Positions 53 through 62,204 of a stretch of 64,000 bases of DNA are shown here, piece after piece (the stretch's first letter is position 1; the number at the start of each line of letters is the position of its first letter). The stretch is from a virus (Duplodnaviria; Caudoviricetes). The DNA lies in IMG/VR virus record IMGVR_UViG_3300017821_000056, positions 64,211 to 128,210 of that record. The stretch is one strand, 5' to 3'. The notes under the pieces are model-generated. The model was not told the DNA's origin and did no database searches. It saw only the letters and a list, made by a program, of their open reading frames with translations. The position numbers were made by a program, and so were the translations under genes.

Positions 53-1053
53 ATGTCGACGCCGCTGCCCCTGGGTCTTACTCCGTATATATCTCCTACG
101 ACCCTGCTCACGGCGCCGACATTATCGAAATTGGAATTGATTTTAGTTCGATACCTTCGGGCGACTACACCCAGCCTACGGAAAACTGGGCCGAGTGGTG
201 GAACATGACGGCCAGGGCCACGTCGCGTGTCGACGGCTATTGTTCCCAGGTCTTGCGTGCCACCATCGACACTGAGCCGCTGCACGGCCCGGACTACCGG
301 GTCACCGTGGGCCCCGCTGCGGGCGGATCGTACCCGACGCCGTACTGGGGGAACTCCGGGGCGCAGAACGCGCGGCTGATCCTGTCCCGGTGGCCGGTGC
401 TGCAGGTGACGAACGTGGCGACCTGCCCGAACTCGCTGTGGCCAAGGTCGTGGACGAACCTGCCGGCCGGGTACTACGAGCCCGAGGTGCCCACTCTCGG
501 CGTGTACGGCTCCATCTCCCCGGCCGGGTCCGCTGACGGGGGGCAGGCGATCCTGGTCGGCGGCGGGTACATCGACTGGTCTTACGGGCGTAACGGGTGG
601 GCGATCCTGGTCACCTATATCAACGGGTGGCCGCACTGCTCCCTCACCTCGGCTGTGGCGGCAGGGGCCACGTCGCTGCCGGTGAACGACTGCACCGGGT
701 GGGGGATAACGGACTACAACAGCGTCTTCACCGGGGCGACCGGCCGGATCGTGGACTCGGGCGCCCAGGAAGCCATCCACGTCACGGCCACGTCGGCGGC
801 GTCGGGGCCGGGGAACCTGACCCTCTCCTCGCCGCTGAATTTCGCCCACACCGCGCAGACGCTTGTCACTACCTTGCCGGCGTCGATCGAGCAGGCGTGC
901 ATCCTGTTCTGCGTCGCGGAGGCCCTGACGAGGGGGGCGACGACGACGACGATCCATGACATCGGCGGGCACGCGCAGTCCACCGGGGGGGACGTGGCAG
1001 GGCTGACAGCGGAGGCCGAGCTCTTGTGCCATCCGTTCCGCAGAACTGTATAA
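53..1053 (+). CDS. Head-to-tail adaptor-like virion protein; 5' end apparently split by an 11-nt TTA-initiated gap (122-132)
   Basis: GGGGGGTGA SD-like run, then ATG53 (MSTPLPLGLTPYISPTTLLTAPT). Coding resumes in the frame of ORF 205 at GGA133 (GIDFSSIP...). C-terminal ...LPASIEQACIL...AELLCHPFRR is adaptor-like; gene lies upstream of tail genes. Confidence 0.6.
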
Positions 1054-1094
1054 GTCTCGGTATGGAGTGGCGAGTCATTTTGCTACAGTGGGGC

Positions 1095-1808
1095 ATGGCA
1101 ACCTGCACAGCAGCCGATGACTGCGAGAAGCCCCCGTTCCGGCGCGGCTGGTGCTCCATGCACTACTCGCGATGGCAGCGGTACGGCGACTTCACCACCG
1201 TAAATAAGCCCGGCAACCCTCGGCAACTAGGCGACTGCCACCTCTGCGACAAGCCGGCTCTCGCCCGCGACATGTGCATCAAGCACTACACCCGCTGGCA
1301 GCGGTACGGCGACCCGACGGTTACGAAGCTAGATCGGGACCGCACGCCAGAGGAGCGCTTCTGGCCGCGCGTCAACAAGGACGGTCCAGTATCCGCTCAC
1401 CGGCCCGACCTCGGCCCGTGCTGGGTGTGGACCGGCGGCCTCGCAGAGGGCTACGGGATGTTCTGGCTCGACGGCCGCAACATCCACGCGCACATCGTGT
1501 CCTTCACTTGGGAGTACGGCGACATCCCCGAAGGCTGGGAGCGCGACCATCTCTGCCGCAACCGTGCATGCGTGCGACCTGACCATCTTGAAGCCGTAAC
1601 CCACTGGACAAACGTGGCGCGCGGCATCTCTCCGCACGGGCTGAACGCGGCCAAGACGAAGTGCCGTAACGGCCATGACTTCACGCCGGAAAACACGCGC
1701 GTGAATAGCAAGGGCCAGCGCGTTTGCATCGCCTGCGCTCGCGCAGCATGTTTGCGGTGGTACCACCGTCAGCGCCAGACGGAACCGGTGGCCGACGCCC
1801 TGTTCTAA
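1095..1808 (+). CDS. Free-standing HNH homing endonuclease
   Basis: CWVWTG...YG, DHLCRNRACVRPDHLEAVTHWTN, KCRNGH..CIAC; two N-terminal C..HY.RW.RYGD repeats; TACAGT -10 at 1084 suggests a leaderless start. Confidence 0.9.
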   Translation: MATCTAADDCEKPPFRRGWCSMHYSRWQRYGDFTTVNKPGNPRQLGDCHLCDKPALARDMCIKHYTRWQRYGDPTVTKLDRDRTPEERFWPRVNKDGPVSAHRPDLGPCWVWTGGLAEGYGMFWLDGRNIHAHIVSFTWEYGDIPEGWERDHLCRNRACVRPDHLEAVTHWTNVARGISPHGLNAAKTKCRNGHDFTPENTRVNSKGQRVCIACARAACLRWYHRQRQTEPVADALF

Positions 1809-1820
1809 CGCCCGGAGAAA

Positions 1821-1867
1821 CGGGACGCCCCTTGCGGTCACCCGGAGGCTCCTACGGGGCGTCCCGC
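1821..1867 (+). terminator. Stem-loop after HNH gene
   Basis: CGGGACGCCCC...GGGGCGTCCCG inverted repeat. Confidence 0.5.
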
Positions 1868-1919
1868 CTTCACTACTCCTGTCTCAAGGAGTGGTACCGA
1901 TTATGGCAGTCTTGGCAGC

Positions 1920-2285
1920 ATGACAACCATCCGCCTGCGCGGCATCGCCCACCGGGAGACTCCCGGGCGGTCCGGGCTCGACCCGACCACCATCGTGCCG
2001 GAAACCGTGCCCGTCTACGTTGAGTACGCAGGCACCGCCATCGGCACCGCGGCCCTGCGCCGCGACGACGACGACACGATCTGGGCAGACGCCACGGTGG
2101 AGGACGGCCCCTGGCGGGAAACCTGCCGGTTCTTCGGCATGTCGTTCCGCTGCGGCCACCTCGCAGAAGTGCCGGGCGCCGGGCTCGGGGAGGCTATCGC
2201 GGTATCGCTCACCGCTTCGGTTCTCAGCAACAAGCTCATCCCCGGCCACCGGCCGCCGTTCGAGGTCGCCGACGACGATTTTTTA
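1920..2285 (+). CDS. Hypothetical protein; apparent natural end at in-frame TTA 2283
   Basis: First half of ORF 1920..2768; composition changes abruptly after TTA; new SD and ATG at 2297/2307. Confidence 0.5.
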
Positions 2286-2306
2286 CAGGTCCCCTGGGAG
2301 GCTGCC

Positions 2307-2768
2307 ATGTCCTGCGGGAAGACGGTCACCCGGAGGCAGGCCAAAGCCCGCACCAGTTCCGCCCGCGCACACCAGGCCAGGCGAGCCGCTACTCCCTCCG
2401 CGAAAGCGGCGAAGGCCCGGTACCGGCAGCAGTCCTACGCCGCGTTCGTCCGCCAGCTGAGGCACTACTACCACGTCCGCCACCTCCAGCACGTCGCCCA
2501 CCAGGCCGCTGCGGCAGCGCAGGCCCCGCACCCGGCTAAGCGCCGGGCCGCCCGCGCAGCAGCCCGGCACGGCGTCACGTCGCGGATCCGGTGCAAGCAG
2601 AAGACCCGCAAGGCCGCGGTCGTCCGCAAGGGGCCGGCGAAGAAGAAGACGGCCCCGGCGAAGTCCAGGGCTGTCAAGGCGGCGGCAGGGAGAAGGGCAG
2701 CCCTTCCCTCTGCCGGGGTGCGCGCGGCACGGTCGGCACGGTCGGCGCGGGCGAGGCGGGGACGTTAG
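2307..2768 (+). CDS. Highly basic Arg/Lys/Ala-rich protein (histone-like composition)
   Basis: GGAGG 2297-2301 then ATG2307; almost no acidic residues. Confidence 0.55.
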   Translation: MSCGKTVTRRQAKARTSSARAHQARRAATPSAKAAKARYRQQSYAAFVRQLRHYYHVRHLQHVAHQAAAAAQAPHPAKRRAARAAARHGVTSRIRCKQKTRKAAVVRKGPAKKKTAPAKSRAVKAAAGRRAALPSAGVRAARSARSARARRGR

Positions 2769-3472
2769 GCAAACCTCGATCGGGCCGGAGTCGTTGCGAG
2801 CGGCAGTCCCGCACGCGCCTTGTCCTCCAAGGCGGCAAGCGTCATGTGCGCTTCCTCTGGCGTGGTGCCCCTGATGTGCACTGACCATCCGTACATGACC
2901 GGCTCCGGGTGGAGCAGGGTGGCTGCGGCATAGCGCGGCTGAATGCTCACCAACGGAGAGCCGGGCAGGTCGGCGCAATCCTCGTACGGGACCGTGTGCA
3001 GCGCGACCTGATAGCCGCCCTCGTGGAAGCCATCCACCGTGAGCACGGTGCTGATATCGATGACGGGATAGCGTGCCTTGCGGCGCTGCTGTGGCGGCTT
3101 CTGGCCCTTTTCTATGTAGCCGATCAGCGATTTGTCAGGCTTGTACGGCGGCGGTGCTGGCGGTTCGGGCCTCCACTCCCCGAGCCACTCCTTGCATGAG
3201 GCGTGAACGGGCCAGCTGAATATCTCCGCGAGGTCATCCGGGATCATCTGGTCCAGGTCGGTCATCCCGCACACGGGACAGGTCCGGAGCGTCTCCTCCG
3301 TCGCTGCAGAATCGCCTCGCGGGTACGGGCGGGACATGTCGCGCGGGACTCTCGGATCACCTGCCGGTTCTGGCAGCGCGGCCTTGTGCTGCTGCTGCGC
3401 GGGACGCACGAAGCTGCCATAGAAGGTCATCGCCACCGCAAGGAACGCGAGCGTCATCACGAGGAAGCTCAT
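2765..3472 (-). CDS. Hypothetical membrane-anchored protein, antisense within the structural module
   Basis: N-terminal hydrophobic helix, CPVC motif, fills the gap between + genes. Confidence 0.6.
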   Translation of the reverse strand: MSFLVMTLAFLAVAMTFYGSFVRPAQQQHKAALPEPAGDPRVPRDMSRPYPRGDSAATEETLRTCPVCGMTDLDQMIPDDLAEIFSWPVHASCKEWLGEWRPEPPAPPPYKPDKSLIGYIEKGQKPPQQRRKARYPVIDISTVLTVDGFHEGGYQVALHTVPYEDCADLPGSPLVSIQPRYAAATLLHPEPVMYGWSVHIRGTTPEEAHMTLAALEDKARAGLPLATTPARSRFA

Positions 3473-3505
3473 CCGCTCATCGTGGCACGAAGGGGCGGTG
3501 CCGCC

Positions 3506-4021
3506 GTGCCCCTGGTGTCGGTGCAGTCCTTCCTATTCTCACTGCTGGACCAGCTCCCGATGCCGTACGGCCTCCCCACGGCCAAGGCCTACGTCACGCC
3601 GCCGGACCCCAGGGTGCAGGCGAAGATCCCTGCGATCTACATCTGGCCCGCGGACGGCGATGAGAACCGCACCGAGCAGCTGGGCGGCACGGTCCCCCGC
3701 AACACGGGGCCGGGCACCTCGTCGGGCACCAAGGGGATCATGCACCGGTTCGACGTGTACCTGACGTGGTTCTCCGCCGGGGCCGGGGTGGATCAGGACC
3801 CGAAGTTCCCCGGCATGGTCGACGCGCTGATGTTCAAGCTGCGGACATCCCAGCCGAACCCGTACGCTGCGACCGACCCGAACACGGGCCTCACGTCAAC
3901 GATCTACAACGTCGGCGAGAATATGGTGTACCGTACCGGAATCGAAAGTACGGCCGATGAGCGCACGAAACGGTACGACGCGCTAATCCAGGTTGACGTC
4001 TGGGAGATCATCAACGCCTAG
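3506..4021 (+). CDS. Tail terminator/completion-like protein
   Basis: GTG3506 after AAGGGG; size, PAIYIWP motif and position upstream of the tail tube. Confidence 0.55.
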   Translation: MPLVSVQSFLFSLLDQLPMPYGLPTAKAYVTPPDPRVQAKIPAIYIWPADGDENRTEQLGGTVPRNTGPGTSSGTKGIMHRFDVYLTWFSAGAGVDQDPKFPGMVDALMFKLRTSQPNPYAATDPNTGLTSTIYNVGENMVYRTGIESTADERTKRYDALIQVDVWEIINA

Positions 4022-4350
4022 TCCGGCCGCCCATCGTCCGGCACCCACTCGAACCGCATCCCGTCCGGCAGCAGCAACCCGCTGAGCTCATCCGCGACCT
4101 CCTGCGCCCGGCCTGGAAGCGCGGCAGCGTGCGCCTCCAGCACGGCCCGCGCAGCGGCCTCTGCGGCGTTATAGGACCACCAGTTGATGGCCTTCCCGCG
4201 CCGGTAAGCGAACGTGATCGCGCGCCAGAACCGGACCCTCAGCGGGGGCGGCTCCAGTCCTGCTTCCCACGGCTTCAACCCGAACGCCGCGAGCGTCTGG
4301 CTCCGCAGTCTCGCCGCGAACTCCTCCTCGTCGCTGCCCATGACCGCCAT
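4018..4350 (-). CDS. Hypothetical protein
   Basis: MAVMGSDEEEFAARL... fills the gap with GC3-rich codons. Confidence 0.5.
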   Translation of the reverse strand: MAVMGSDEEEFAARLRSQTLAAFGLKPWEAGLEPPPLRVRFWRAITFAYRRGKAINWWSYNAAEAAARAVLEAHAAALPGRAQEVADELSGLLLPDGMRFEWVPDDGRPD

Positions 4351-4373
4351 TGTCCACGACACAGGAGGCTCTT

Positions 4374-4667
4374 GTGACGCGCGCTGTCTACACCGGCCAT
4401 GAGGCCCTGACCTTCCCCGGCTACATCGACCTGGAGTCCGGGCAGACCCTCCACGCCGAGCCGGGCGGGACGTACGACATCGCCCCGGCGTCAGGGAACG
4501 CGGGGGACGAGGTGCCTTTCCCGTGGTTCGTGGCCGCCGATGCCGGGGCGCAGGCCGCGGCGGAGGCCGCACGGGCGGCAGCGGAGGCTGAGCGGCTGGC
4601 CGCGGAGAACGCAGGGGACGGCGGGGAACCGGGCGGCGAACCCGGGCCCGGCGGCGAAGACATGTAA
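4374..4667 (+). CDS. Small hypothetical protein preceding the tail tube
   Basis: AGGAGG then GTG4374. Confidence 0.65.
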   Translation: MTRAVYTGHEALTFPGYIDLESGQTLHAEPGGTYDIAPASGNAGDEVPFPWFVAADAGAQAAAEAARAAAEAERLAAENAGDGGEPGGEPGPGGEDM

Positions 4668-4727
4668 CTCTCGTCATTCTGGCAGTACATCCCAGCGATT
4701 CGCCTGTAATGGCGAGAGAGGGGCCGT

Positions 4728-6119
4728 GTGAGCCTCGGAACGCCGAACATCTATCCGGGTGTGCTCACCTACATGGGCATCGCACGCGAGCTGACGGCCG
4801 GCACGCCGATCGTGCCCGTGATCACCCACCCGCTGAACCAGTCCGAGTTCGAGCCCGAGGACATGCCCCGCTTCCTCGATGACAAGGCCATCCGCGGATC
4901 GATGACGGACCTGTTCTATAAGACGCTCGGCGTCGAGTCGGCCACGTTCAGCCTGGGCGGCCCCAACTTCCTCGACACCCACGGCTATTTCTTCGACAAC
5001 GTGTTCGGGGACCTGTCCACGACGGGCACCGGCGCCCTGAACCCGGCCACGTTCAACTCGGCGCTCGCGGTCGGCGCGACCCAGGGAACCCTGTCCGCCG
5101 TCCCTCCCGCCCAGTACACGGCCGGGGCGGTCCTCCAGATCGGGACCGGGGCGACCACCGAAGTCGTCGTCATCGGCTCCACCGCCGCCTCCAACGTGGT
5201 CAACTTCGCGATCAGCTCGGGCGGGGAAGCGTACCCGCTGCGGTTCACCCACCCGACCGGCCCGACGGTGAGCACGGTCACATCCCCGTACACCCACAAG
5301 TGGGCCGCCCTCAACTCGGCGCTCGGCTACGGCGGCGCGTACGGGGCGCAGCCCCCCACGCACACCCTGACCGACGTGACGAACCTGGTCAACACGTTCA
5401 CCAGCGCCACCTACGGCACCGTCGCCACCTCCACCTACGGGGCGCGGCAGTACCCGAGCGCCGTCCTCAAGGACATCTCGTTCTCCGGGAACGCCGAGCA
5501 GCTCCTCAACATCCGGATGACCGGCGACTCGTGGCTGTCGGTGATCGCCGGGACCGCCGTCACCAACGTGACGACGAACAGCCGGCCCATCCCGAACTGG
5601 ACCGCCACCGTCGTCCTCGCGGGCAACACGATCAGCAGCAGCAACACCTACAACGGGGTCGGCGAGTTCAACGTCAGCGCCAAGCGCGCCACCCAGGTGT
5701 ACTGGACCGTCCAGGGCACCCAGACCCCGTACATCATCGCCCGCGGCCCGCTGACGATGGACGGCACCATCCAGTTCGACCCGTCGAACTCCGAGATGCC
5801 GCTGGACCTGATGCTGCTGAACAGCCAGGCGCCCCTGAGCATCTCGCTGACCAACGCGAACATCACGAACGCGGGCACCCCGTTCACGCTGACATTCACG
5901 ATGTCCCAGGCGGCGATGACCAAGTCCAAGATCATGCGGAACAAGGCTCTCCTGGGCTTCGGGAACACCATGGAAGCCGTTGCTAACTCAACGGATACGG
6001 GTGGTAGCGGAGGGTTGGGGCCGGGGACGATTACGCTCGTCAACAACACGGCCGTATACGCTCTGTCATCAGATGACTTCGATCTGTATCTGGCGGCGCG
6101 GCACCTGTCGGAGGTCTAG
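4728..6119 (+). CDS. Major tail tube protein (with inserted Thr/Gly-rich domain)
   Basis: YMGIARE...GTP, LDDKAIRGSM tube-like motifs; lies upstream of chaperone and tape measure. Confidence 0.8.
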   Translation: MSLGTPNIYPGVLTYMGIARELTAGTPIVPVITHPLNQSEFEPEDMPRFLDDKAIRGSMTDLFYKTLGVESATFSLGGPNFLDTHGYFFDNVFGDLSTTGTGALNPATFNSALAVGATQGTLSAVPPAQYTAGAVLQIGTGATTEVVVIGSTAASNVVNFAISSGGEAYPLRFTHPTGPTVSTVTSPYTHKWAALNSALGYGGAYGAQPPTHTLTDVTNLVNTFTSATYGTVATSTYGARQYPSAVLKDISFSGNAEQLLNIRMTGDSWLSVIAGTAVTNVTTNSRPIPNWTATVVLAGNTISSSNTYNGVGEFNVSAKRATQVYWTVQGTQTPYIIARGPLTMDGTIQFDPSNSEMPLDLMLLNSQAPLSISLTNANITNAGTPFTLTFTMSQAAMTKSKIMRNKALLGFGNTMEAVANSTDTGGSGGLGPGTITLVNNTAVYALSSDDFDLYLAARHLSEV

Positions 6120-6859
6120 CCGGCTTCTTGCTGGCGCTTTCGCTCGCGCATGCGCCGCTTGCGTTCTCGGGCAAGTTCTCGGACATGCTCCTGCTGCTCG
6201 GGACTCAGTTCCGAGACCTTCGGGATCAGTCCTTCTGCCTGCCGGCGGCGTTGCTGCTCGCGAGCGCGAGCGCGGCGCTTCTCAAGCTCATTGGGCGGCA
6301 GGTCGGCCGATGGTGTCCACACCTGCTTGCCTGTCGCTTTCCTCGCGTAGTACTGCTCCAGTCCGCGCTCGCGCTTGCAGGTCAGGCAGACCCGGCTCCC
6401 CTTGTTGTTGATCATGGTGTTCTCGGGCGTGTACTCATGACCCTGCGGGCACTCGGTGACATTCAACTGCCACGTAGTCCCGTGGCGGTGCTTGTCTCGC
6501 ATGTTCTCGGCATGGGTCCCGTAGATCAGGTTGCCGCCAGCGGCCACGGTCTCCGCTTCATCGCCGGGTGCCCAGCGGTTGTTGCCGGGGTTGCCGTCCA
6601 GGTGGCGGACTTCCTGCCCTTCGGGGCAGGGGCCGACGAACGCCTCCATGACGATCTTGTGGACCTGGCGGGGCTTCTGCTTGCCGTCTTTGGTCAGGGT
6701 GACCCAGTGGTATCCGTTCGCCTTGACAATGACGTGCTTGAGGATGCCGCCGCGGGTTGTTGCTCGCGGCTCGCTCCAGACGTCACCCCGGTCTGATACG
6801 CGGTACAGGCCCTCGTAGTCAGGTACCCAGGCCCAGCGTTCGGGCGTAACGTCATCCAT
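6116..6859 (-). CDS. NUMOD4-HNH homing endonuclease
   Basis: ERWAWVPDYEGLYRVSDRG (NUMOD4); VHKIVMEAFVGPCPEGQEVRHLDGNPGNN...NL; CPQGH..CLTC. Confidence 0.9.
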   Translation of the reverse strand: MDDVTPERWAWVPDYEGLYRVSDRGDVWSEPRATTRGGILKHVIVKANGYHWVTLTKDGKQKPRQVHKIVMEAFVGPCPEGQEVRHLDGNPGNNRWAPGDEAETVAAGGNLIYGTHAENMRDKHRHGTTWQLNVTECPQGHEYTPENTMINNKGSRVCLTCKRERGLEQYYARKATGKQVWTPSADLPPNELEKRRARAREQQRRRQAEGLIPKVSELSPEQQEHVRELARERKRRMRERKRQQEAG

Positions 6860-6890
6860 GTCGGAACCTCTCATCCAGGTTTCGGCCACG

Positions 6891-6941
6891 CCCCCGGACG
6901 ATTTGCACTCGTCGCGGGGGTCTTTTCGTGCCTACATTCTA
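6891..6941. promoter_or_regulatory. Hairpin (terminator-like on +) and TAGAAT -10 box (on -) upstream of the HNH gene
   Basis: CCCCCG-GACGA...TCGTC-G-CGGGGG then TCTTTT; ATTCTA at 6936-6941. Confidence 0.55.
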
Positions 6942-7010
6942 CCAGCTAGGAGCGGCGAATGGGCTTTGCCTCGCGGCATTCAGCCTCCCGCATAGGGGAG
7001 GTGATGCTTT

Positions 7011-8225
7011 ATGGCTAGGCTTATGTGGCACTCATGTGCTCCGTGGTCTGCCAGTTTAAAATGCGGATACGGAACCCAGACCGCGATCTGGACCCGGAAG
7101 CTCAAGGAAATGGGCCATGAGGTCCTGATCAGCAATTTCTGGGGACTGCATGGCTGTTCCCTGGAATGGAACGGCATCCCGGTGCTGCCCGCGTTCGGCG
7201 GGTCGTACTGCACCCCGTCGCTCGCCCAGCATGCGAAGCACGCGGACCCGGACCTGATCATCTGCCTGGGTGACATCTGGCCGATGGACCCGTCGCTGAT
7301 GGCCGGGCTGCCTTTGGCGCACTGGCTGCCGTCGGACTGCCGGCCGATGTCGATGGCGGACCGGGAGAAGGCGGAGGCGGCGGGGCCGCAGCTGATCGCG
7401 ATGTCCCGGTTCGGGGAGGCCCGGTTCCGGGCGGCCGGGTTCCGGGATGTCCGGTACGTGCCGCACGGCATCGACCTGGAGGCGTTCAGGCCGCCGGAGG
7501 ACCGGGACGCGCTCCGGAAGGCGGCGGGGCTGGACGGGGCGTTCGTGGTGGGCGCGAACATGGCCAACAATGACGCGATCCGCAAGGCATTGCCCGAGAT
7601 CATGCTGGCGTTCGCCCGGTTCCACTCCGACCATCCGGATGCGCTGCTGGCCCTGCACACGGGGGTGCACCAGGACGGCGGCCAGGACCTGGAGGCGATC
7701 GCGGAGAACCTGGGGATCACGGACCGGTGCAAGGTGGTGGACCAGTACCGGTACACGTCCGGGTTCGTCACCGAGGAGGACCTGCGCGGCTGGTACGGGA
7801 CGGTTGACGTGCTGTGCGCGGCGTCGTACGCGGAGGGGTTCGGGCTGCCGATCGTGGAAGCCCAGGCCGTCGGCTGCCCGGTGATCACGACGGCGTGCTC
7901 GAGCATGGAAGAGCTTAACCCGCTGGGGATCTCGGTGGACGGCTCGCCATTTTGGAATGGCGTCCATCGCGCCTGGTGGGTCCGCCCCGACGTCCGCGGG
8001 CTTTACGAGGCGTTCTGCCTGGCATACGAAAACCGCGACAGCGTGGACCGGGGGAAGCTGCGGGAGTTCGCGGCCGGCAACTACGAGGTGGGCCACGTGG
8101 CGGAAACGTACATGAAGCCCGTCGTCGATGAGCTTCTGGAAGTTATGGCACAGCGGCGCGGGAAGCGCCCGGAACTACAGGAAGCAGGCGCGGATGCGGA
8201 TAACGCTGCCGTCGAAGCAGGCTGA
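7011..8225 (+). CDS. GT-B (family 4-like) glycosyltransferase
   Basis: GYG near N-terminus, VPHGID, ASYAEGFGLPIVEAQAVGCPVI. Confidence 0.9.
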   Translation: MARLMWHSCAPWSASLKCGYGTQTAIWTRKLKEMGHEVLISNFWGLHGCSLEWNGIPVLPAFGGSYCTPSLAQHAKHADPDLIICLGDIWPMDPSLMAGLPLAHWLPSDCRPMSMADREKAEAAGPQLIAMSRFGEARFRAAGFRDVRYVPHGIDLEAFRPPEDRDALRKAAGLDGAFVVGANMANNDAIRKALPEIMLAFARFHSDHPDALLALHTGVHQDGGQDLEAIAENLGITDRCKVVDQYRYTSGFVTEEDLRGWYGTVDVLCAASYAEGFGLPIVEAQAVGCPVITTACSSMEELNPLGISVDGSPFWNGVHRAWWVRPDVRGLYEAFCLAYENRDSVDRGKLREFAAGNYEVGHVAETYMKPVVDELLEVMAQRRGKRPELQEAGADADNAAVEAG

Positions 8226-8801
8226 CGGGTCGGAGAACTGGGTCGAGGTGAAGGGGGCCGACGACTTCCTCGCCGCCGACCTGTTCGCCATGCACCGGGC
8301 GGTGCGGATCACCAACGACCCGACGGGGAAGACCAGCTACAGTCCTGCGGAGATGGCCGACGACCGGGTGAACGCGTTCCTCGGCGCGGCGATCACCGGG
8401 TGGTCGTTCCCGTCGCCGGTCCCTTCGCAGGCGAACGTAGCGGCGGCGGACGTGGTGATCGGCCGGGCGATGAAAGCCCGTGACTGGGCGGTGCTGCGGA
8501 ACAAGGTCCAGCCGCTGATGGACGAGCTCGAAGGCGCCGACAGCAGCGACGATGCCGGGGACCCAAAAGAGACATCGCCCGGTTCCTGATCTACCGGGCG
8601 AACCCGCAGGCCGACCCGGCCCGCGCCCCGGCGCTGCCGGACGGGTTCCCGGTGGTGATGTTCACGTACCGGATGTTCGCGGAACTGTACGGGTGGACGC
8701 CGGAGCAGGTGCGGTCGCTGCGGCGGGATGAGCTGTACTGGCTGCCGGTGACGGCGGAGGCGTTCCGGGAAGCGGCTGAGACGCTCGCAGGCAAGGATTG
8801 A
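8194..8801 (+). CDS. Tail assembly chaperone with -1 programmed frameshift (short form ends 8589)
   Basis: Slippery C CCA AAA at 8562-8568; -1 frame reads RDIARFL...LYGWTPEQVRSL...* to TGA 8799-8801. Confidence 0.8.
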
Positions 8802-8822
8802 GGACCGGGCCGGGGTGATCGC

Positions 8823-9305
8823 ATGGCCGTGACCCCGGAGCAGAACCTGGCGCATCTGGAGCAGGTGCGGCGCAGGGCCCGGTACGGTGCTACGGCGGCA
8901 GCGACGGCGATGGCGAAGTACGTCCGGGACCGGGCGCGCGACGATACCTTGCAGCGGACCCGGCACCAGAAAGGCGAATGGTACCGGCAGCGGCCCGGCG
9001 AGCCGCCCGCGCGGGCGTCGGGGGCGCTGATCCGGGACATGTTCTACAAGCCGGCGTCCGGGGGCCTGCGGGCCACGGCGCTGGCGGGGAACAAGTCCGA
9101 GTACGGGCGGATCCTCGAGTTCGGGTGCGTGATCGTCCCGGTGAACAGGAAGTTCATGCACTGGACGGACTCCGGCGGGTCCTGGTATCACACGATGCTG
9201 GTCGTCCCCGCGCACCCGTACCTGTCCACGACGACGGACGAGGCGATCGATGACGGGGAGCTTCAGCGGGCTGCGGTAGAGGCGTTCCGGGATTACGACC
9301 CCTGA
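8823..9305 (+). CDS. HK97 gp10-like neck/tail-completion protein
   Basis: PGEPPARASGAL, YGRILEFG, PAHPYL motifs. Confidence 0.7.
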   Translation: MAVTPEQNLAHLEQVRRRARYGATAAATAMAKYVRDRARDDTLQRTRHQKGEWYRQRPGEPPARASGALIRDMFYKPASGGLRATALAGNKSEYGRILEFGCVIVPVNRKFMHWTDSGGSWYHTMLVVPAHPYLSTTTDEAIDDGELQRAAVEAFRDYDP

Positions 9306-9347
9306 CCCTGACCTGCTCCTGCCACGGTGCCCGGATGGGGGTGAGCC

Positions 9348-12300
9348 GTGCCTAGAGGCCTCCCTTCCGTGGAGCAGCAGTTTTCCGCCGAGACGAGCGG
9401 GTACGACGCCGGCATTGCCCGGATGGTCGAGGACAACCGCCGGCTGATCGCCTCGATCGGGGACGTGCAGAAGCAGGTCGGCGAGATGAACCGGCTGCTC
9501 GGTTCCCTGCCTGACCGCAAGGCGATCAGGATCAGCGTCGAAGGCGCCGACAGCGCGATAGCCGAGATAGCCAAGGTGAAGGCCGCGCTGGACGGCCTGG
9601 GCGATAAGAGCATCGCCATCGGCGGCAGCGAGGCGATGGTCCGCGAGCTGCGGGACATCTCGGCGTCGATGGACATGGCGACGTCTTCCATGGGCCGGAT
9701 GGAAGAACACCTGACCGTCATCAGCCGCAGCGTGCAGGATTCGTCCGCTGACCTGATGATGCAGACGCAGATGCTGCGGGACAACGCCGACGCGCACAAC
9801 GCGGCAGCGACAGCGGTAGCAGCGCTGGCGACAGCACGCGGCGGCGCTGGCGGGGGCAGCGGATGGGGTGCCGCAGCAGCCGGCGCCGCCGCGGGTGCCG
9901 CAGCGGGCGGCGGGGGCGGGGGCGGAGGAGGTGCCCCCGGCTTCGTCCCGTGGGCTGGTGGCGGCTGGCAGGCGGTCCGCTTCTGGGGGATGATGGGCGC
10001 CGAAGTCGCCTCCACCGTGGTCCCCGCTCTCGTCGCCGCAGGCTCGGCGGCCCTGGTCGGCGCGCAGGGGTTCGAGCAGTTGCAGAACCGAGCGCAGGCG
10101 ATCTACACGACTAGCGAGGCCCTGGGCGCCTCGCTGAACCAGACGTTCGGCTCGTTTGTCGTCGGCGGCAAGTACGGGAACGCCTTGCAGCAGGCCCAGA
10201 ACATGGCCCAGGGCGCCGTGTACGGGATCGCCGGGGCAGGGATCAATCTTCTCCAGGGAGGCGCGGGCCAGGGGCTGCTGAACATGGGCGTCCAGACCAC
10301 CGACATGATCAGCCGGAGCGCCGCGCAACTCGTGCTCAGTGCCCAGCAGCGGGGTCTCGGCGCGCAGCTCACCGGGCTGGTCGGCGGCGGCCCCCGGTAC
10401 CTGCAGCAGTTCGGGCAGGTCGGGGCGAACCTGGGGAACATCCTGCTGGGTGTCGCGCCGAATCTGCCGGGGGTCGGCAAGGACCTCCTGTCCACCCTGG
10501 TGGGCGGGACCGGGGTCCTGGCGGCCGGTGCCGAGAACATCCCCAGCCCTCTCCTGAAAGGCTTCTTCACATACGAGGCCGCGTCCCGGTGGCTGCCCGC
10601 GCTGCTCGGCGGGCAGGGGCTGATCGGCAGGGCACTGGGCCTGCGGGGAGTCGGCGGCCTCGGCGGGCTGATCAGCAAGGGCGGGGAAGCGCTTTTCACC
10701 CGCGGCATGGGGGGTGCCCTCGGGGATGTCGGGCTCGGCGCGATGGGCTTCGGGGACACGCTCGCGGCGCTGACCGGTCCTGAGGTGGCGATTCCTCTCG
10801 CGCTGATGCAGGCTGAGTTCGCGGGGCTTAACATGCTCCCGCGCGGCGCAGGAGGCGCGGCAGCGGGACAGATCGCGGGCTTGCGGGCGGGGATCACGGC
10901 GGGGGGTTTCACCGGGGCGTGGCAGCCGCTCGCCCAGGCGATCACCAAGATGTCCGGGTTCCAGGCCGGCCTGCCGGACTACGTGAGGATGGCCGCGCCG
11001 ACGCAGCAGATGCTGGCTTCCAGGGAGGGGGCCGGCCTGCAGGCCGCCTACGCCACGTCGCCTCAGGTGCTGACCGGGCAGGCGATGCAGACCTGGACCC
11101 AGCAGCTAGGCGACCTGGTTGCGAGCGGACCGCAGCTGGTGTCCGCTCTGCAGAAAGCGGGGCTGAACACCAGCAACATGGCGGACGCGTTCATGATCGC
11201 GCAAAACGCGGGACTGGACCTGTCGCACTCTTTCAAGGCGAACGGGCAGCTGACCGATGTTGCCACGCAGCAGCTGAAGCAGTACACCGCCGCCATCGCG
11301 CCGATGACGAGGAGCACCGGCGCGTTCGGCGCGGCGGTGTCCGCGCAGTACATCATGGGCCAGCCTGCGGTGCAGAACGTCGCGAAGGTCAACCAGGCCA
11401 TGGATTCCATGACCCAGATCATGACGGGAGGTCCCCTGGGTCAGGCGGGCCTGACCGGTGCGCTGGCGTCGATCCAGACTCTCGGCACCACGCTGTCCAG
11501 TCTCGCCGCCGCACCTCCGGGTGCGGCAGGCCTGGCGAAAGCGAACACGGCGGTAGTCGCGCAGGCTTTGTCCAACGTGATCACCCCGGGCGGGGCGGCG
11601 GCATGGCAGGCGTTCGCCGGGTCCCCGGGCGGGGTTCCCGGGGTGATCCCGTCAACGCAGGCGATCATGGATCAGCTGCGGACGGCGCTGGCGATGGGCG
11701 CGATCGGTATTTCCGGGTCGGTGGCAGGAGGGGCACCTACTCCGGGCGGGGCGGCGGGCCTGGCCGGGTTCAATATTCTCCAGGCGCTCCCGGTTGCCCG
11801 GCAGTCCCCGGCGGCACTGGCATCGCTGATGCAGCAGGGCGCGCAGATGGGCGTGACCCCGTACTACGACCCGACTAAATCCCTGGCGCAGAACTATGCG
11901 GCTGCCGCGACCGCCGCCGGGAAGGTCGCGGACAATGCCAAGACGGCGAACATAGCTACGCAGGGTCAGGTCGTGAACTTGTCCCGGATGCCGCAGCTGG
12001 CCCAGCAGTTCGTCGGCGGCCTGAACGCGCAGACCCTGGCGAACCAGCTCGCGGACGCATCCAAGGCAGTGGGCCAGATCAGCACGCAGGCCGGGAAAGG
12101 GCTGGTCGACAAGGGCGCGCTGACCCAGCTGGTCGGTGATTTCAAGACGGCAGGGATTCAGGGTGCGGGGAATATCAAGGCGGCCCTGGATTCGGCGCTG
12201 ACCACAGCGGGCGTCTCCCAGACGATGCGGCTCAAGATCGAGGCTGAGGTTACGCCGCATGTCGATACCGCCGCAGTGAAGGCGGTGAAAATCCCGGCGC

Positions 12301-13946: not shown

Positions 13947-13990
13947 CTCCTCCTTCCCTCTCGCTGCTGCCTTAAGGCGGTGCCATCACC

Positions 13991-14179
13991 ATGCCCGAAC
14001 CCGCCCCCCTGACCGTCACCTGCGACTCGTGCGGGGCCTCGGCCAGGACCTTTAACGGCTCCGACCCGGACGGTGCCCTGGAGTGCGGCTGCTGCCCGGA
14101 GGACCACAGCCATGCGGGGCTCGGCTGCCGCACCGTCACCATCTCGGCCACGGCGTACCTGACCGGCGAAGCCAGCTGA
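13991..14179 (+). CDS. Small Cys-rich protein
   Basis: CDSC...CGCC..H.H. Confidence 0.55.
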   Translation: MPEPAPLTVTCDSCGASARTFNGSDPDGALECGCCPEDHSHAGLGCRTVTISATAYLTGEAS

Positions 14180-14223
14180 CTTCCCCGGACACCCCGGGCT
14201 TGACCCCGAAGGAGTGAGCAGCC

Positions 14224-14811: not shown

Positions 14812-14842
14812 GTGGCCTTTCTGCAGCTAAGGCGGTGATTTA

Positions 14843-15310
14843 ATGGCTATGTTCGACCAGACCGACGCCACGAACCTGCTAGCTGCCATCCTCAATAACA
14901 CCAGCTACACCACGGTGGCCGCGACGCACATCCGCCTCGGCACGAATGCGCCCACGGCCGGCGCCAATATGACCGAGCTCGGCGGCGGCTCCGGGTACAC
15001 GACGGGCGGGGCGTCCATCTCCTGGAACACCGTGTCGGCGGCGGCCACGTCGAACTCGGGCACCGTGTCGTGGACGAACTCGGGGTCTGGCTGGACCCTG
15101 GTGGGGCTGGAGATCTGGGACACGGCGGGGACGCCGCTGAGGCACCTGTTCGGGACGTGGACGGGGCAGCCGGTCAGCGTGGCGACGGGCAATACGTTCC
15201 AGGTCGCTGCCGCTGGCATCGCCGTGTCGCTCGTGTTACGGAAAGTAGTTGCGCTAACTGCTGACTGTAACTTAGCGTGCGTCCGAGAGGGTGACCGATG
15301 CCCTCAGTGA
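14843..15310 (+). CDS. Minor tail fiber-like protein; apparent natural end at 15235, before TTA
   Basis: TELGGGSGY, LEIWDTAG...LFG, VATGNTFQVAAAGIAVSLV. Confidence 0.75.
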   Translation: MAMFDQTDATNLLAAILNNTSYTTVAATHIRLGTNAPTAGANMTELGGGSGYTTGGASISWNTVSAAATSNSGTVSWTNSGSGWTLVGLEIWDTAGTPLRHLFGTWTGQPVSVATGNTFQVAAAGIAVSLVLRKVVALTADCNLACVREGDRCPQ

Positions 15311-22953: not shown

Positions 22954-22961
22954 AGCGTCCC

Positions 22962-54638: not shown

Positions 54639-56196
54639 TGCGCGGTCTCCCCTCGCTGCTGGTCTTTCAATTCCCGCTCGTACGCCTTCGCTGTCTTCGG
54701 CGCGATCCCGATGAGCTTCCCGGCCTGCTGTGCCGTGAGGCCCTGATCCAGGTAGCCGGCGAACTCGGCTAGCCGCTCCTTCCGCCCGGCCATCGCCTTG
54801 GCGTTCGCGGGGTGAAGCTCATCGGGGGCTTCGGCTCGTTCCGGGTAGTAGCGGGGGTCGTTCGGAAACCAGTCCGGGTCTCGCTTGTAGTGGTAGTAGC
54901 CGCCCTCGCCGTCGCCGGCGTCATCGCGGACGGTGGCCGGGCTGGACTGGCCCATCGTGGAGTAGCTGACCCTGATGGTGCTCACGAGCCCTCCTCCCCT
55001 CGCTGCCTGTCTTGCCTTCGCCCGTACAGCCAGTAAGCCGTCCAGGAGACAGCAGTGAGACCGGAGATGACGGCGGCGAAGATGCCTGCCGCAGCGCCGC
55101 TCACGACACGCGCTCCAGCGGTATCGGCCCGGTGTCGGCCTCGGCCATGCCGGGCACGATCCCGGGCGCGTTCCTGGCCGCGTCCGTCGCCTCTGGCTTC
55201 GGCTTGGCCGGCGGTATCACCCGCACCGACAGGGAGAACACGAGCCACTTCTTCGCTATGGCCAGGGTGCCCAGGGAGGCGAGGAAGCCGACGGTGGCGC
55301 AGACGGTCTCAAGAGGGTTCACGATCCCGGCCCTTCCTCGTCGCCGCTGTTGCCGTGCACCTTGCAAGCCGGGTCAGCTTTGATCAGCCGCCATGTCGCC
55401 GGGTCCGCCCGTACCAGCCGCCACGTGCAGCCGCAGCCTTCCGGGATGACAGGGGGGCTGCCGGGCTCGGATAGCAGGTCGCCGGTCACGATGCCCTCAC
55501 TTCGCCGAAGTGGTATTTGCCGTGATGTGCCCTCGGATACGGGATAGCCCCGATGACCTCCAGGACCTCGCGGAGCATCCCCTTCGCCGCCTGCTCGTCT
55601 CCTTCAGCAGCAGCGAGGGAAAGGCTGGCGAGGGTGATGCAGGCGCTCCGCTGCTGCTCCGGGGTGACGGTCCCGGCCTGGATGGCGTCGTCCTCGGGGT
55701 TCACGGTGCCTGCTCCTTCTCGCCGCCGCCGGCCGGATCGCAGGCGAAGCGGAACACTCCTGTGGCCAGGTCCCGCGGCGTCTGGTAGATCCGCCCGACC
55801 ACGCCCTCGACTGGCCGCCCGGCATCGGTGACCGCCGCGATCCTGGCGCCGACCTCGAGCCAGACGGCGGTCCCCAGCGATCCGTCCCGCCTCCTGATGT
55901 CCGCCTCGATGGCGAGCACGCGCTCTATGCGCTTCCGGTACCACGGCATAACGGCTGCCTCCCCTTCGCTGCGAACTGCCCTTCAAGCCAGGGCAGGTAC
56001 GTCTTCTCCTGGGCTGCCAGGTGCTCCTCGCGTGCCCGGGCCCGTGCCCGTGCCTGCCGCCAGCCCGCGGCCCACTCCACGGCCACCACCAGCTCGTAGA
56101 AGGCGAGGAGCACGGCCACCACGGCGAAGGCGACGACGAAGATCGCGGCGAGGGAGACCTGGACGGTGGCCAGGGTGATGCTGGCGCCGGCGGTGA

Positions 56197-56883
56197 TCAT
56201 GCTGCCCCCCTAACTGCTGCCAGGTGCTCAAGCAACTGGGTGCCGATGAACTCCGTGTACGCGGGCGGGATGGCCTCCTTGCAGCCGATCCAGTCGGCCC
56301 ACGGCATCCCCATCGCCTGCCGAGCCTCGGCCAGGGTCTTCGGGGCGCGCTGGATGGTGCCGTCTGCGCGGTCAAACAGCCGCCGCCCGTCGTGATGCTT
56401 GCCGTAGACGCCGAGCGGGTTGGCGACCGGACGTGCCGTCGGCGCGAGGATGAGGACGTTCGACTCGAAGATCCGCGGCCGGTGGACGCCGAGCCCGAAC
56501 ATGCCCCCGTGCAGCGTCAGGGTTGCCTGCATCACGCGCTTGGCGGGCGGCACGTTCTCGACTACCCAGGGCACCGGGAGGCAGCGCAGCAGCGCCAGGG
56601 TCGGCGTCAGCAGGTCGAGGTGGTCGTCGGCCCTGCTGCCCGTGCCGCGGTGCCGGTTGCTCATCGTCGTGAAGTGCTGGCATGGCGGCGAGGCGTGGAT
56701 GGCGGCGAAGGCGGACAGGTCCCAGTGGTCGAGCACGTCGAGCGCGTCGGCCTGGATGAACCCGAACGGGTAGAGCGGCTGCGGCTCAATGTCTATGCCG
56801 ACCACCTCGAACCCGGCGCGGTCATAGCCGGTCCCCGCGCCGCCCTGGCAGCAGAACAGGTCGAGCAAGCGAGGCCGGGTCAT
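56197..56883 (-). CDS. C5 cytosine DNA methyltransferase
   Basis: LLDLFCCQGG, IHASPPCQ, VVENV, EAIPPAY. Confidence 0.85.
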   Translation of the reverse strand: MTRPRLLDLFCCQGGAGTGYDRAGFEVVGIDIEPQPLYPFGFIQADALDVLDHWDLSAFAAIHASPPCQHFTTMSNRHRGTGSRADDHLDLLTPTLALLRCLPVPWVVENVPPAKRVMQATLTLHGGMFGLGVHRPRIFESNVLILAPTARPVANPLGVYGKHHDGRRLFDRADGTIQRAPKTLAEARQAMGMPWADWIGCKEAIPPAYTEFIGTQLLEHLAAVRGAA

Positions 56884-59312: not shown

Positions 59313-61258
59313 GGTTTCCCCCTTCGGTGCCGCTCAGGGCCGCCACGAGAGCGGCAAGAGCAGCAGGATCAGAACCGGCGGCGGCATCGCGGAGCGCCCG
59401 TGCGGTGAAGGCGAGCCGGGAGTCCTCGTCATGGTCACGGCACAGCCCGTCCGCTGCCTTGCGGCAGTCCGGGCAGAAGACGAACCGGGCCTCGAAGTAG
59501 TCCTGTGCCGCCTCGAATGCCTGGAGGATGTCCCCCAGGGTGAAGGCCGGGGCGCGGGTGACGACGGGGGCGTTCATGACAGCCACCCGAACGGCGATCC
59601 GGGCGTGATGGCGACAGCGGCATCCGGCCCGCGCACGCCGCGGATCCAGTCAGCGAAGGAGACGCCTTCCGGGCACCGGCCGGTGATGTAGTACTCCTCG
59701 CCGTAGCCCTTGATGCTGGCCAGCCGCTCGTCCGCACAGCACGGCCCGTAGCCGTAGGAGCCGAACATGAAGCCGCCCGAGCGCGGGTCATCGGTCAGGT
59801 CGGTGTCGCAGGCATCGCAGACGACGAGGCGGCCGAGCGGGATGACCGTGGCCTCCCCGTAGTCGGCTGCGTTCAGGCCGTCGGCGAACTGCTGCCGCAG
59901 TTCCTGCGGAGTCGGGTCGCTCATCACGCCGCCTGCCCTTCCGCCGCAGGCTCGGGCTCGGGGACGCAGTACTCAGGACGGGGACGCCACGTGTAGCGCC
60001 AGTCGTCGTAGTCCCACGCGTACCGGCCGCTCGCCGTCATGATCGACCGCACCGTGATCTCGTGCTCGTGGAAGATGTCCTCCAGCGTCACGCCGGGCTG
60101 AGTCTGCAGGGAGTCCCACCGCGCTGCCCGCTCCGCGTCGGCCAGCCGGCATCCGGGGCAGGTCCACTTGCCGTACCTGTCGTAGTCCCAGCCGGCTTCG
60201 TAGGCGTGGTGCCGCAGCACCCCGAGGACCCGGGTGCGGGTGAGCACGTCCGGGGGGGCGTCCGCGAACGCCGTGCCGCAGTGCCCGCACGGGGGGATGT
60301 CGAAGCCCGGCAGCGAGGAGATGAGGGCGTCCCCGACCGGGAAGTCGGGGAAGGGGCGCTTCTCCGCCGCTGCTTCCTGAACGGCTTCGGGGACTACGTG
60401 CATGGTCACCGTGTCCTCGGTGACGGCCTGGGGCTGGGTCTCGGCGGTGCTCATCGCCCGGTCACCGCCCGCTTCACCACGATGACGAACACGGCGATGA
60501 GGAGGATCGACAGCACCAGCGCCGTGGTGATCCACAGCGGCGACAGCACCCACCACCAGGACCACCCGATCTTGTGCAGGAGCTTGAGCGCGATGAACAG
60601 GATCGTCAGCAGGCCCGTGAAGCCGATGCCGCTGGACGAGGACGAACTGCTGCTGTTGCGGCTCATGACGCCACCTGCTCTCTGTACTCCGGCAGCGGGA
60701 TGCCGGGCTGGGACTCGTACTGCCGCAGGTTCGCCTGCGCCGCCTCGTACTCGTTGTCCGCCCAGTCGATGACGCCCTGGGCCAGTTCACAGATCCGCTC
60801 GTAGTTCTCGCTGATGCGGTTGAACCGGTCGCAGGCTTCCTCGTAGGGGTTCATGCCGCACCAGCCAGTTCCGGCTCACGGGAGGCGGGGACAGCGGAGT
60901 GCAGGTTCCGCTCGGGCAGGTAGAACGCCTCGTACAGGTAGCCGCCGCCCAGGACGATGACCGCCCGGTAGCGGCCGTCCTCATCCCACCGGGCGGGGAC
61001 GTGATGCTTGGCGGCGAACCTGTCCACGGCCGCCGTCCCTTCCTCGTCGCCTGCGGAGGGCAGCGCGGCGGGGCCCTGGAGGATGTCGAACACCGTCCCG
61101 TCTATGGAGCGGTGGGTCATGGACAGTGGGGCCGGGGCGTCTTCGTCGTACTCCATGAGGAGGTAGAGGCGGAGGAAGGCCTGGGTGCGGGCTGCGTGCT
61201 TGCCGCAGTCGGCGGCGTGGAGGCGCTTCTCGCGGTCTGTGAGGTAAGGGCTGGTCAT
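59305..61258 (-). other. Small early hypothetical genes
   Basis: Coupled ORFs, including membrane protein 60451-60666. Confidence 0.55.
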
Positions 61259-61355
61259 GTTCCGCTCCGTCTCGTTGCGTGTCCTGTATGCTGTTGACTG
61301 TCCGTTTCGTCTCGGACTGGCCCGGTGGTTGCGACACCGGGCCTTTGCTTTGCGC

Positions 61356-61670
61356 TTAGGCCGCCGCCCTGTTAGGGCACTCATGGTCGGGTGCCCATAG
61401 CCCGCTGCACTGCACGCAGATGACGGCGAGGCGCTTGTCGGGCGGCCCGTCCTTGCGCTTGAGCTGGTCCGGCTGGCAGCCGAAGACCTGGGCCATGGAC
61501 TCGATGAGCGCTAGCCGGGCGTTGCGCGTGCCGCTCTCGATCATGGAGATGAGGCTGAGCGACACGCCGAGGCGGCGCGCTGCGTCTGTCTTGGTCAGCC
61601 CGGCCTGCTCGCGAGCCCAGACCACGGCCTCGGGGTCGTGGTCCAGAGGGTCCTTCGGGGCGTTTCCCAT
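61356..61670 (-). CDS. XRE/Cro-like HTH protein
   Basis: AREQAGLTKTDAARRLGVSLSLISMIESGTR. Confidence 0.85.
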   Translation of the reverse strand: MGNAPKDPLDHDPEAVVWAREQAGLTKTDAARRLGVSLSLISMIESGTRNARLALIESMAQVFGCQPDQLKRKDGPPDKRLAVICVQCSGLWAPDHECPNRAAA

Positions 61671-61709
61671 GCCCTCAACATACTGTGAAGGGACGTGAAG
61701 GTCAAGCAC

Positions 61710-62204
61710 CTATCGGGCACCTTCACGCCCCTTCTTGTCGCGGATTGGTAACGGAAGGCGCTGCGGACGAGGAGGGAGCGCTGGAGGACTCATCAGGTCA
61801 CGCAAGAGGTTCGAGACCGGAACGAGGACGCCCCACGTCGGGTGGGAGCCGTTGATGCCCCCGTTCCTCCTGCGGCCGAGCGCGTAGTAGTAGCGGGCGA
61901 CCGCCTTCAGCCGATCCACGGGAGCAAAGACGACTGTCTCCGTCGCCAGTACCAGCGCCCATACTTCTGCCGTGGTCACGGAGATTCCACTGGGCTTGTA
62001 CTGGCCGAAGTAGCGGCAGCTGTACTCGATGTAGATGTTCCCTGTCCTTGCCGCCCAGATGTCAGTCTTGGTTTCGACACGGGTTCCGTCTTTGAGGGAC
62101 TGAATTAGATCGATGACGAACAGTTCACCGTTCTTGCCGATCTCCCAGTCGATGTCCCATTCAGGATTCCGGCCGGTCGCCATGCGCTCGGCCACGCTGG
62201 TCAT
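61710..62204 (-). CDS. PD-(D/E)XK-like nuclease/hypothetical protein
   Basis: GELFV...VETKTD...TGNIYIE...PSGI. Confidence 0.55.
   Translation of the reverse strand: MTSVAERMATGRNPEWDIDWEIGKNGELFVIDLIQSLKDGTRVETKTDIWAARTGNIYIEYSCRYFGQYKPSGISVTTAEVWALVLATETVVFAPVDRLKAVARYYYALGRRRNGGINGSHPTWGVLVPVSNLLRDLMSPPALPPRPQRLPLPIRDKKGREGAR

Follow-up and report, generated by a model that had tools for sequence, protein, structure and literature searches.

The rare codon TTA at short coding gaps, stop positions and gene tails of a putative actinobacterial phage

Why does a codon that has almost vanished from the genes of a phage persist at a handful of sites, and what would a ribosome do on meeting it there? 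We examined this question for the leucine codon TTA (UUA in the transcript) in a window of 64,000 nucleotides (nt), bases 64211-128210 of the 128,210-bp IMG/VR phage record IMGVR_UViG_3300017821_000056, with a guanine-cytosine (GC) content of 68.7%. An earlier note on this sequence had described about ten TTA sites as hairpin-associated recoding or stall signals. In this study, its observation was partly confirmed and its interpretation was partly supported. On the whole, our results favour the view that TTA is avoided wherever ribosomes must pass, and that it survives at gaps to be hopped, at ancestral stops and in unconserved tails.

Depletion and placement of TTA

TTA was the most depleted sense codon in this phage (G000) and in each of five related phages that were fetched in full (G001-G005, 58-70% GC; L numbers denote IMG/VR loci), with observed-to-expected ratios of 0.013-0.175. 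G000 has about 215 genes and about 38,000 codons with 12 in-frame TTAs, and G001-G005 have 2, 3, 2, 5 and 1, respectively. In G004, whose GC content is 57.7%, TTA occurs twice in frame versus 273 and 225 times in the other two frames, and other A/T-rich codons are common (ATA 201, AAA 522; the range for ATA, AAA and TTT is 148-522). The frame counts indicate that GC pressure is not the cause and that the codon TTA itself is avoided. G001, G002 and G004 (L049-L060) carry 35-42 transfer RNA (tRNA) genes covering nearly every codon, including AUA and AGA; Leu-CAA, -GAG and -CAG are present in these arrays, and Leu-UAA and Leu-UAG are absent. G003 and G005 have no tRNA genes, like G000, for which ARAGORN found none in the window or in the whole 128,210-bp phage.

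The gene calls were made with a codon model trained on the phage itself; in its second round, TTA received a neutral score to avoid biasing the calls against this codon. All TTA-bearing open reading frames (ORFs) were compared with the relatives and with IMG/VR loci. The positional bias suspected in the earlier note was borne out by the count: 7 of the 11-12 TTAs of G000 lie in the last 25 codons of their genes, versus a baseline of 14% (p about 2e-4 per codon; 5 genes), and over the six genomes the fraction is 16/25. Other codons ending in A (NNA; CGA, AGA and CCA) are also enriched at 3' ends, far less than TTA. None of the surviving TTAs lies in a conserved protein interior, as the note had put it in saying that TTA never falls within a domain, and a real stop codon follows most of them after 1-24 codons. 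The base 3' of TTA, considered as a signal after a proposal made for adpA, was not consistent among the sites. Judged by their alignments with homologues, the surviving TTAs appear to fall into gap, stop and tail types. The sites already listed at 2283, 7056, 15236, 15272, 27744, 27762, 32481 and 61749-61751 (minus strand) were in frame in credible genes; those at 29842 and 39256/39259 were not, and one at 55949-55951 (minus strand) had been missed.

As the record derives from a single metagenome assembly, sequencing or assembly errors, or dead genes of a defective phage, could have produced such sites. However, independent Logan contigs from the probable source run were identical to window positions 1-9010 and 9196-15812, with zero differences at about 13x depth. 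The TTA sequences are not an assembly slip. At least four independent assemblies from other samples have different TTA-led gaps in a virion-region gene, here called gene A, whose first exon is under purifying selection, and the phage genome is complete, with terminal repeats of 123 bp at the ends of the record. An artefact has, in our view, next to no chance of being the explanation. Two further sequencing runs (X2 and X3) gave fragments alone, in which the TTA sites were not covered. No near-identical variant with a TTA/TGA polymorphism was found when the 21-mer ending at 15235 was scanned in metagenomes; its 29 matches were all chance or unrelated.

Fibre-like proteins, an integrase, an Erf-like recombinase and a portal fused to a NUDIX domain are among the hallmarks that mark the record as a phage. 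A 4.6-kb gene had no megablast match among isolated phages, and a portal search returned distant relatives alone (28-32% identity), the best portal of an isolated phage being 29% identical. The clade is uncultured, with no isolated phage close to it. A DUF397 protein and an mIHF-type protein, the latter 59-61% identical to proteins of actinobacterial metagenome-assembled genomes (Micromonosporaceae and uncultured Actinomycetes), point to a host in Actinomycetota; a narrower placement, for example in Streptomyces, is not possible from these two proteins. No Rfam family was found at the gathering threshold.

TTA-led gaps near the 5' ends of conserved genes

The earlier note had taken the TTAs at 122 and 7056 to open short inserts near N-termini, and the relatives carry other TTA-led gaps at these spots. 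The features concerned are as follows.

53-121, plus strand: N-terminal exon of gene A, starting at ATG 53 and encoding MSTPLPLGLTPYISPTTLLTAPT, with a conserved GGAGGTGA-type ribosome-binding site upstream
122-132, plus strand: 11-nt coding gap TTATCGAAATT, with the in-frame TTA first and a frame shift of -1/+2
133-1053, plus strand: body of gene A (GIDFSSIP..., 306 amino acids), conserved among the virion-region genes of the clade, with no start codon before 205
123-153, plus strand: hairpin of TATCGAA in the gap with TTCGATA in the downstream coding sequence (z -2.15; 6 of 200 shuffles fold as well), without counterpart in relatives
7011-8225, plus strand: GT4-type glycosyltransferase (Pfam Glycos_transf_1, PHROG 2170), 60-64% identical to its orthologues
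7056-7064, plus strand: 9-nt insert TTA AAA TGC between S and GYG of a conserved N-terminal motif

TTA 122 is in frame with the conserved 23-codon exon of gene A and not with the main ORF. The exon peptide is conserved in 11 relatives, and among the gapped genomes its synonymous and non-synonymous differences range from 10:0 to 14:5. This excess of synonymous differences indicates that the exon is translated and under purifying selection. On the other side of the gap, the body is 45-75% identical to its relatives starting at the first residue. Gene A is uninterrupted in six relatives (G004, L109, L110, L113/114 and L115), which read APT-GIDW across the junction. In others, the same spot is gapped at different lengths, written here as codon, gap and codon: ACT-TTACC-GGC in G002 and GGT-TTAGC-ATC in G003 (both 5 nt), GAT-TTAGGAC-TGG in G001 and L112 (7 nt), and ACA-TTAGCGGAGGGCCTCGAAAGTAAACC-GGA in L116 (26 nt).

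The insert at 7056-7064 is missing from six homologues or paralogues of the glycosyltransferase. G003 has a 7-nt out-of-frame gap in its glycosyltransferase, AGT-TTAAAGC-GGT, and since this frame-breaking gap occupies the identical spot, the in-frame insert of G000 belongs to the gap class. Gene B, a small portal-associated protein, is the third gapped gene and reads TAC-TTAAC-ATC in G001. Before the window, a 1521-amino-acid fusion at genome 43297-47862 (L009:3297-7862) joins a portal domain, a NUDIX domain and a C-terminal small protein; the latter is a separate gene in G001, G002 and G004 and is TTA-gapped in G001.

UUA-led short blocks therefore stand directly 3' of the last conserved codon at 122-132, at 7056-7064 and at eight further sites in relatives. 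They span 5-26 nt and TTA is always first. In most of them, the take-off and landing codons are synonymous or equal at positions 2-3 (ACT/ACC, GAT/GAC, AGT/AGC, TAC/AAC, GGT/AGC, ACA/ACC). Within the window, ACA/ATT at 122 is unmatched and AGT/TGC at 7056 matches at 2/3 positions. The gap count is a minimum, as short N-terminal exons were missed in gene calling (for example at the G003 glycosyltransferase gap); noise precluded the use of upstream coding scores to find hidden gaps.

These results argue for recoding at both gap sites of the window. With both flanks conserved, and with the 7-nt gap of G003 and the target-frame stops of G001 and L116 that cannot be read through, the earlier proposal that the sites at 122 and 7056 are gaps to hop is well supported by the comparisons, and ribosomes would pass from the take-off codon to the resume point without decoding the insert. 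Reading of UUA would throw gene A out of frame and add three residues to the transferase, inside its conserved S-GYG motif. Another way across would be an ordinary frameshift (+1 or -1) at the hungry UUA, leaving one to four extra residues at the junction. Hungry-codon frameshifting is established, and the target frame is open across the gap in G000, G002 and G003, where a -1 shift would work. However, the target frame just before the resume point of gene A holds TAG in G001 and L112 and TAA in L116, so that a simple shift at UUA is excluded there. Slippery heptamers are lacking, and the junction motifs APT-GIDW and S-GYG do not vary among homologues without a gap, which argues against extra residues. 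Mass spectrometry also supported bypass for the terminase of phage phiHau3 (PMC10732093). We regard frameshifting as quite improbable, and hopping remains the preferred reading of the gaps.

A second in-frame TTA lies at window 143-145 in the unshifted frame of gene A, seven codons past TTA 122 and ahead of a TGA at about 206. A ribosome reading UUA 122 would reach UUA 143 before that TGA. A longer hop of 47 nt in gene A, from ACA 119 to ACC 169, was rejected because the GIDFSSIP segment that it would skip is conserved as protein. The gene A family had no match in Pfam, PHROG or the PDB, and its AlphaFold model was mediocre (predicted local distance difference test score 64.5), with no Foldseek match below E 0.001. 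A role of gene A as head-tail adaptor was not supported by any sequence or fold match.

Genes resembling those of homing endonucleases stand beside both gap sites.

Ending at 26: LAGLIDADG-like gene just 5' of gene A (LAGLIDADG_3 E 2.3e-5, above the curated cut-off)
1095-1808, plus strand: HNH homing-endonuclease-like gene just 3' of gene A (Pfam HNH_3 E 2.6e-11)
6116-6889, minus strand: HNH and NUMOD4 homing-endonuclease gene divergent from the glycosyltransferase (HNH_3 E 1.8e-11, NUMOD4 E 2.1e-9)

The gapped glycosyltransferase of G003 adjoins an HNH/AP2 gene, and both gaps of G001 have an Endonuclease_7 gene upstream. An endonuclease neighbour was found at 5/7 gapped sites versus 0/4 ungapped orthologues (one-sided Fisher test about 0.045, calculated by hand). 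This adjacency, of which the earlier note made no mention, offers a simpler origin for the inserts, which most likely came with the neighbouring homing-endonuclease genes or would protect against them.

Compared with the gene order of relatives, about 2.4 kb are inserted at window 1095-3472, between gene A and a conserved gene of 171 amino acids; the segment encodes a very basic protein rich in Ala, Arg and Lys (2307-2768) besides the HNH endonuclease, the gene at 1920-2282 and one on the minus strand. Glycosyltransferases are scattered among the virion genes (window 7011-8225 and 22862-24295; genome 59948-60643 and 56736-59605), and a nucleotide-sugar pathway (epimerase/dehydratase, C-methyltransferase) is also present.

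TTA at and behind gene ends

The remaining TTAs of the window lie at or near the ends of the following genes.

1920-2285, plus strand: gene of 121 codons with coding signal up to TTA 2283-2285
14843-15310, plus strand: fibre-like protein (weak Pfam Gp80 match) with TTA 15236 at the stop column of its homologues
15235-15271, plus strand: 15-bp interrupted hairpin GUUACGG..CUGUAAC over the first TTA of that gene (z -3.07; 1 of 200 shuffles)
27153-27794, plus strand: DUF4082 protein, with TTA 27744 sharing its A with ATG 27746 of a GH16-like gene and TTA 27762 in the tail
32202-32516, plus strand: small membrane-like protein with TTA 32481 at the family's C-terminus and the real stop 11 codons on
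55925-56200, minus strand: 91-codon gene with TTA 55951-55949 eight codons before the stop, its A also belonging to the ATG that starts the next, overlapping gene
61710-62204, minus strand: PHROG 13596 protein with TTA 61751-61749 13 codons before the stop

At the column of TTA 15236, at least nine homologues ending in SLV have TAG, TGA or TAA. The tail behind it comprises 24 codons, among them the second TTA (15272), and reaches into the region where the next gene starts (ATG 15298). The stops of homologues lie 0 (G002), -1 (L151/152) and +1 (L153) codons from TTA 32481. Two DUF4082 homologues stop 1-2 codons from TTA 27744, the others being longer fusions. Behind TTA 2283, the same frame runs through a GGGAGG site (2296-2301) to ATG 2307 of the unrelated basic protein; the halves on either side of this TTA match unlinked genes in G003 and other contigs, and 1920-2282 had no relatives in IMG/VR. 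Two cases lie outside the window. At genome 60644, TTA ends a GT2-like glycosyltransferase and 3/4 homologues stop there. The triplet 60644-60646 is shared: read on the minus strand, the TTA is the TAA with which a convergent gene stops. The frame left open past the TTA is antisense to that gene for 193 codons (score -14 versus +53). At genome 35541, TTA stands five codons past the stop of DUF6221 homologues.

The sites at 15272, 27762, 55951 (minus strand) and 61751 (minus strand) are of the tail type and lie in short unconserved tails. The match of the PHROG 13596 protein to L119 (79% identity) ends exactly at TTA 61751, and L119 stops four codons later; no relatives of 61710-62291 were found in the five related genomes. 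For 55925-56200, homologues were found neither in IMG/VR nor in these genomes.

An all-against-all comparison found 65 genes that are C-terminally longer than their homologues, and the codon aligned with the homologous stop was TTA in 4 of them, with about 0.01 expected. As far as position goes, the earlier description of such sites as de facto stops is supported, with homologue stops at or next to TTA 15236, 32481 and 60644. Translation may actually end at these UUAs, and neutral stop loss combined with survivorship is a live rival. Under this rival, UUA would be merely costly, and new TTAs would persist where the harm is small: after stop loss (TGA or TAA to TTA in one step), in disposable tails, and where the third base must be A because it belongs to an overlapping ATG. 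The gaps would be endonuclease scars that are crossed inefficiently. The general enrichment of NNA codons in the last 25 codons and the TT-ATG overlaps at 27744, 55951 and G005 41121 are consistent with it. However, TTA makes up 3-4 of about 8 one-step stop replacements in G000, versus about 10% expected from the neighbours of TGA and TAA (a hand estimate), and read-through at 60644, 2283 and 35541 would add 139-193 codons or fuse unrelated genes. Gaps also recur at one spot in six genomes, always led by TTA and mostly with take-off and landing codons that match, which speaks against it as well. We judge pure survivorship to be somewhat unlikely.

A stronger reading would make UUA a punctuation mark with two outcomes set by context, a hop if a matching codon lies a few bases ahead and otherwise the release of a finished protein. 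If this unlikely reading were true, 1920-2282, 14843-15235, 32202-32480 and the transferase at 60644 (no stop for 193 codons) would end on a sense codon. This would amount to a conditional sense-to-stop use of UUA, tied to the tRNA state of the host. Full reassignment, with TTA as a true stop recognised by a release factor, would account for in-frame TTA being as scarce as a stop, for its alignment with the stops of homologues and for the absence of a phage tRNA for UUA. It is very improbable: conserved coding continues past UUA in gene A, gene B and the G003 glycosyltransferase, and real stops follow most TTAs within 1-24 codons. We know of no bacterial release factor that reads UUA.

The earlier note had placed most TTAs at the foot of a stem-loop. 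In this study, folding beat dinucleotide shuffles at 122 (z -2.15), 15236 (z -3.07) and 29842 (z -2.0) only, and it was no better than shuffles at 32481, 27744, 2283 and 7056. In 60-nt windows, the mean fold at TTA sites was weaker than that at ordinary stops (-15.1 versus -18.6 kcal/mol). No excess structure was found at the gap sites of relatives, and an internal GGAGGG was present in the L116 gap alone. These results do not support the UUA-hairpin element as a class.

Two listed sites fall outside credible genes.

29569-29856, plus strand: ORF of 95 amino acids with TTA 29842 and a negative coding score, probably not a gene
38878-39703: non-coding stretch of 826 bp with TTAA at 39256-39259 and no coding signal in any frame, near the tyrosine integrase at 36876-38177

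At 29842, a hairpin CUGCGCCC-UUAG-GGGCGU lies just before GTG 29866, and no terminator-like site was found near it. Window 29866-31836 is an ORF of 656 amino acids with internal DNA repeats and no family match, of which the gene caller accepted the 3' half alone. The stretch at 38878-39703 had no Rfam or tRNA-like match and is a possible attachment region. Elsewhere, a transposase gene (window 43696-44934, minus strand; PHROG 506, E 1e-81) lies in the early/regulatory region. Before the window, genome 14408-20539 (L007) has conjugation-type genes within a tailed phage: it encodes a TraG/TraD-like coupling-protein domain and a large protein that contains a LAGLIDADG insert, and an mIHF-like gene comes next.

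An avoided codon among known recoding systems

The explanation that we favour begins with a host that would read UUA very poorly, or not at all, during infection, a situation known from Streptomyces. Selection would then have purged TTA from positions that need normal ribosome passage. One place of survival would be the head of 5-26-nt inserts near the 5' ends of conserved genes (122-132, 7056-7064). A second would be at or near an ancestral stop (2283, 15236, 32481 and about 27744, and 35541 and 60644 outside the window), where the protein would already be complete at the stall, so that UUA would be tolerated; there it may end translation or pause ribosomes over the next start region. The unconserved tails behind such ends would be the third.

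Several points weigh against this explanation. At site 122 of G000 itself, the codon before the resume point, ATT, is unlike the take-off codon ACA, and the target frame is open upstream, so that a -1 shift with a four-residue insertion is equally possible. At 7056, the 9 nt of the insert keep the frame and might just be translated. Gene A of G002 and of G003 is gapped without an endonuclease neighbour. The stop-type TTAs are few, and some lie 1-5 codons off the stop of homologues; ordinary codons open about four to six further C-terminal extensions in G000, so stop loss occurs anyway. Both of these also fit the survivorship account. The state of the host tRNA-Leu(UAA) is a guess, and the tie to its supply drawn in the earlier note an inference, because the host is placed only to Actinomycetota, and no RNA runs with phage sequence were listed among the sequencing runs.

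In Streptomyces, the sole UUA-cognate tRNA (bldA) is limiting in young mycelium. The terminase gene of phage phiHau3 has two 10-nt UUA-led gaps, and two prophages (StrepC.1 and S. catenulae) have 7-nt gaps (Smith et al. 2013 in Antonov et al. 2023, PMC10732093). In Streptomyces, the phiHau3 gene yields a full-length product, and bypass is supported by a junction peptide; a lack of the cognate tRNA is proposed to be what lets bypass work (PMC10732093). The gaps described here are similar in that UUA directly follows the take-off codon, in the shortness of the blocks (5-26 nt, versus 7-10 nt in the terminases) and their place inside invariant motifs, and in the high-GC actinobacterial host with exceptionally rare UUA. 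They differ in the genes, which are an unknown virion-region protein, a glycosyltransferase and a small portal-associated protein of an unrelated clade and include no terminase. They also differ in the many gap lengths at one site, the one in-frame gap, the homing-endonuclease neighbours and the stop-position TTA class, which is not described there for phage genes.

T4 gene 60, which Huang is said to have described in 1988 (the mobA cassette, Bonocora in 2011), reportedly has a gap of about 50 nt with GGA as both take-off and landing codon, a UAG, a nascent-peptide signal and a take-off hairpin. As at gene 60/mobA, the gaps here adjoin homing-endonuclease genes, have take-off and landing codons that match in most cases and place a putatively slow codon after take-off. 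In contrast, they span 5-26 nt and have the sense codon UUA after take-off, and hairpins are no general feature of them; the T4-type set of signals is not found. The mitochondrial byps of Magnusiomyces capitatus, attributed to Lang in 2014, reportedly comprise dozens of inserts of 27-55 nt. As is predicted here, several genes of one genome have short skipped inserts there that start at an unreadable codon. The inserts here are 5-26 nt long and in a phage rather than a mitochondrion, and a stop-position class is present, which to our knowledge does not occur among byps.

The stop and tail types have other parallels. In the bldA control of Streptomyces, an upstream ORF of adpA has UUA a few bases before the main start (PMC10732093). 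As in that case, a rare UUA at 27744, 55951 and 15272 stands towards the 3' end of an ORF adjoining the following start codon, with the function predicted in both; adpA is a host regulatory gene and those here are phage genes. In Micrococcus luteus, AGA and AUA are unassigned codons, and TTA is a stop in NCBI genetic code table 23. As in those systems, a sense codon has been driven from use and would act as a non-codon; unlike them, neither loss of a host tRNA nor recognition by a release factor is evidenced here.

The present findings would extend the signature of UUA-triggered bypass, published for three terminase genes, to other genes of an unrelated actinophage clade. The natural variation of the gaps in length (5-26 nt) and position is a ready mutational series for the rules of short-range hopping. 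The link with endonucleases ties the gaps to T4 gene 60/mobA and suggests how, in general, recoding sites may be seeded by selfish nucleases. The TTAs at stop positions pose the question of the fate of a ribosome at an unreadable sense codon that ends a finished protein. Standard gene callers will misannotate such phages with fused ORFs, truncated N-termini and false frameshifts.

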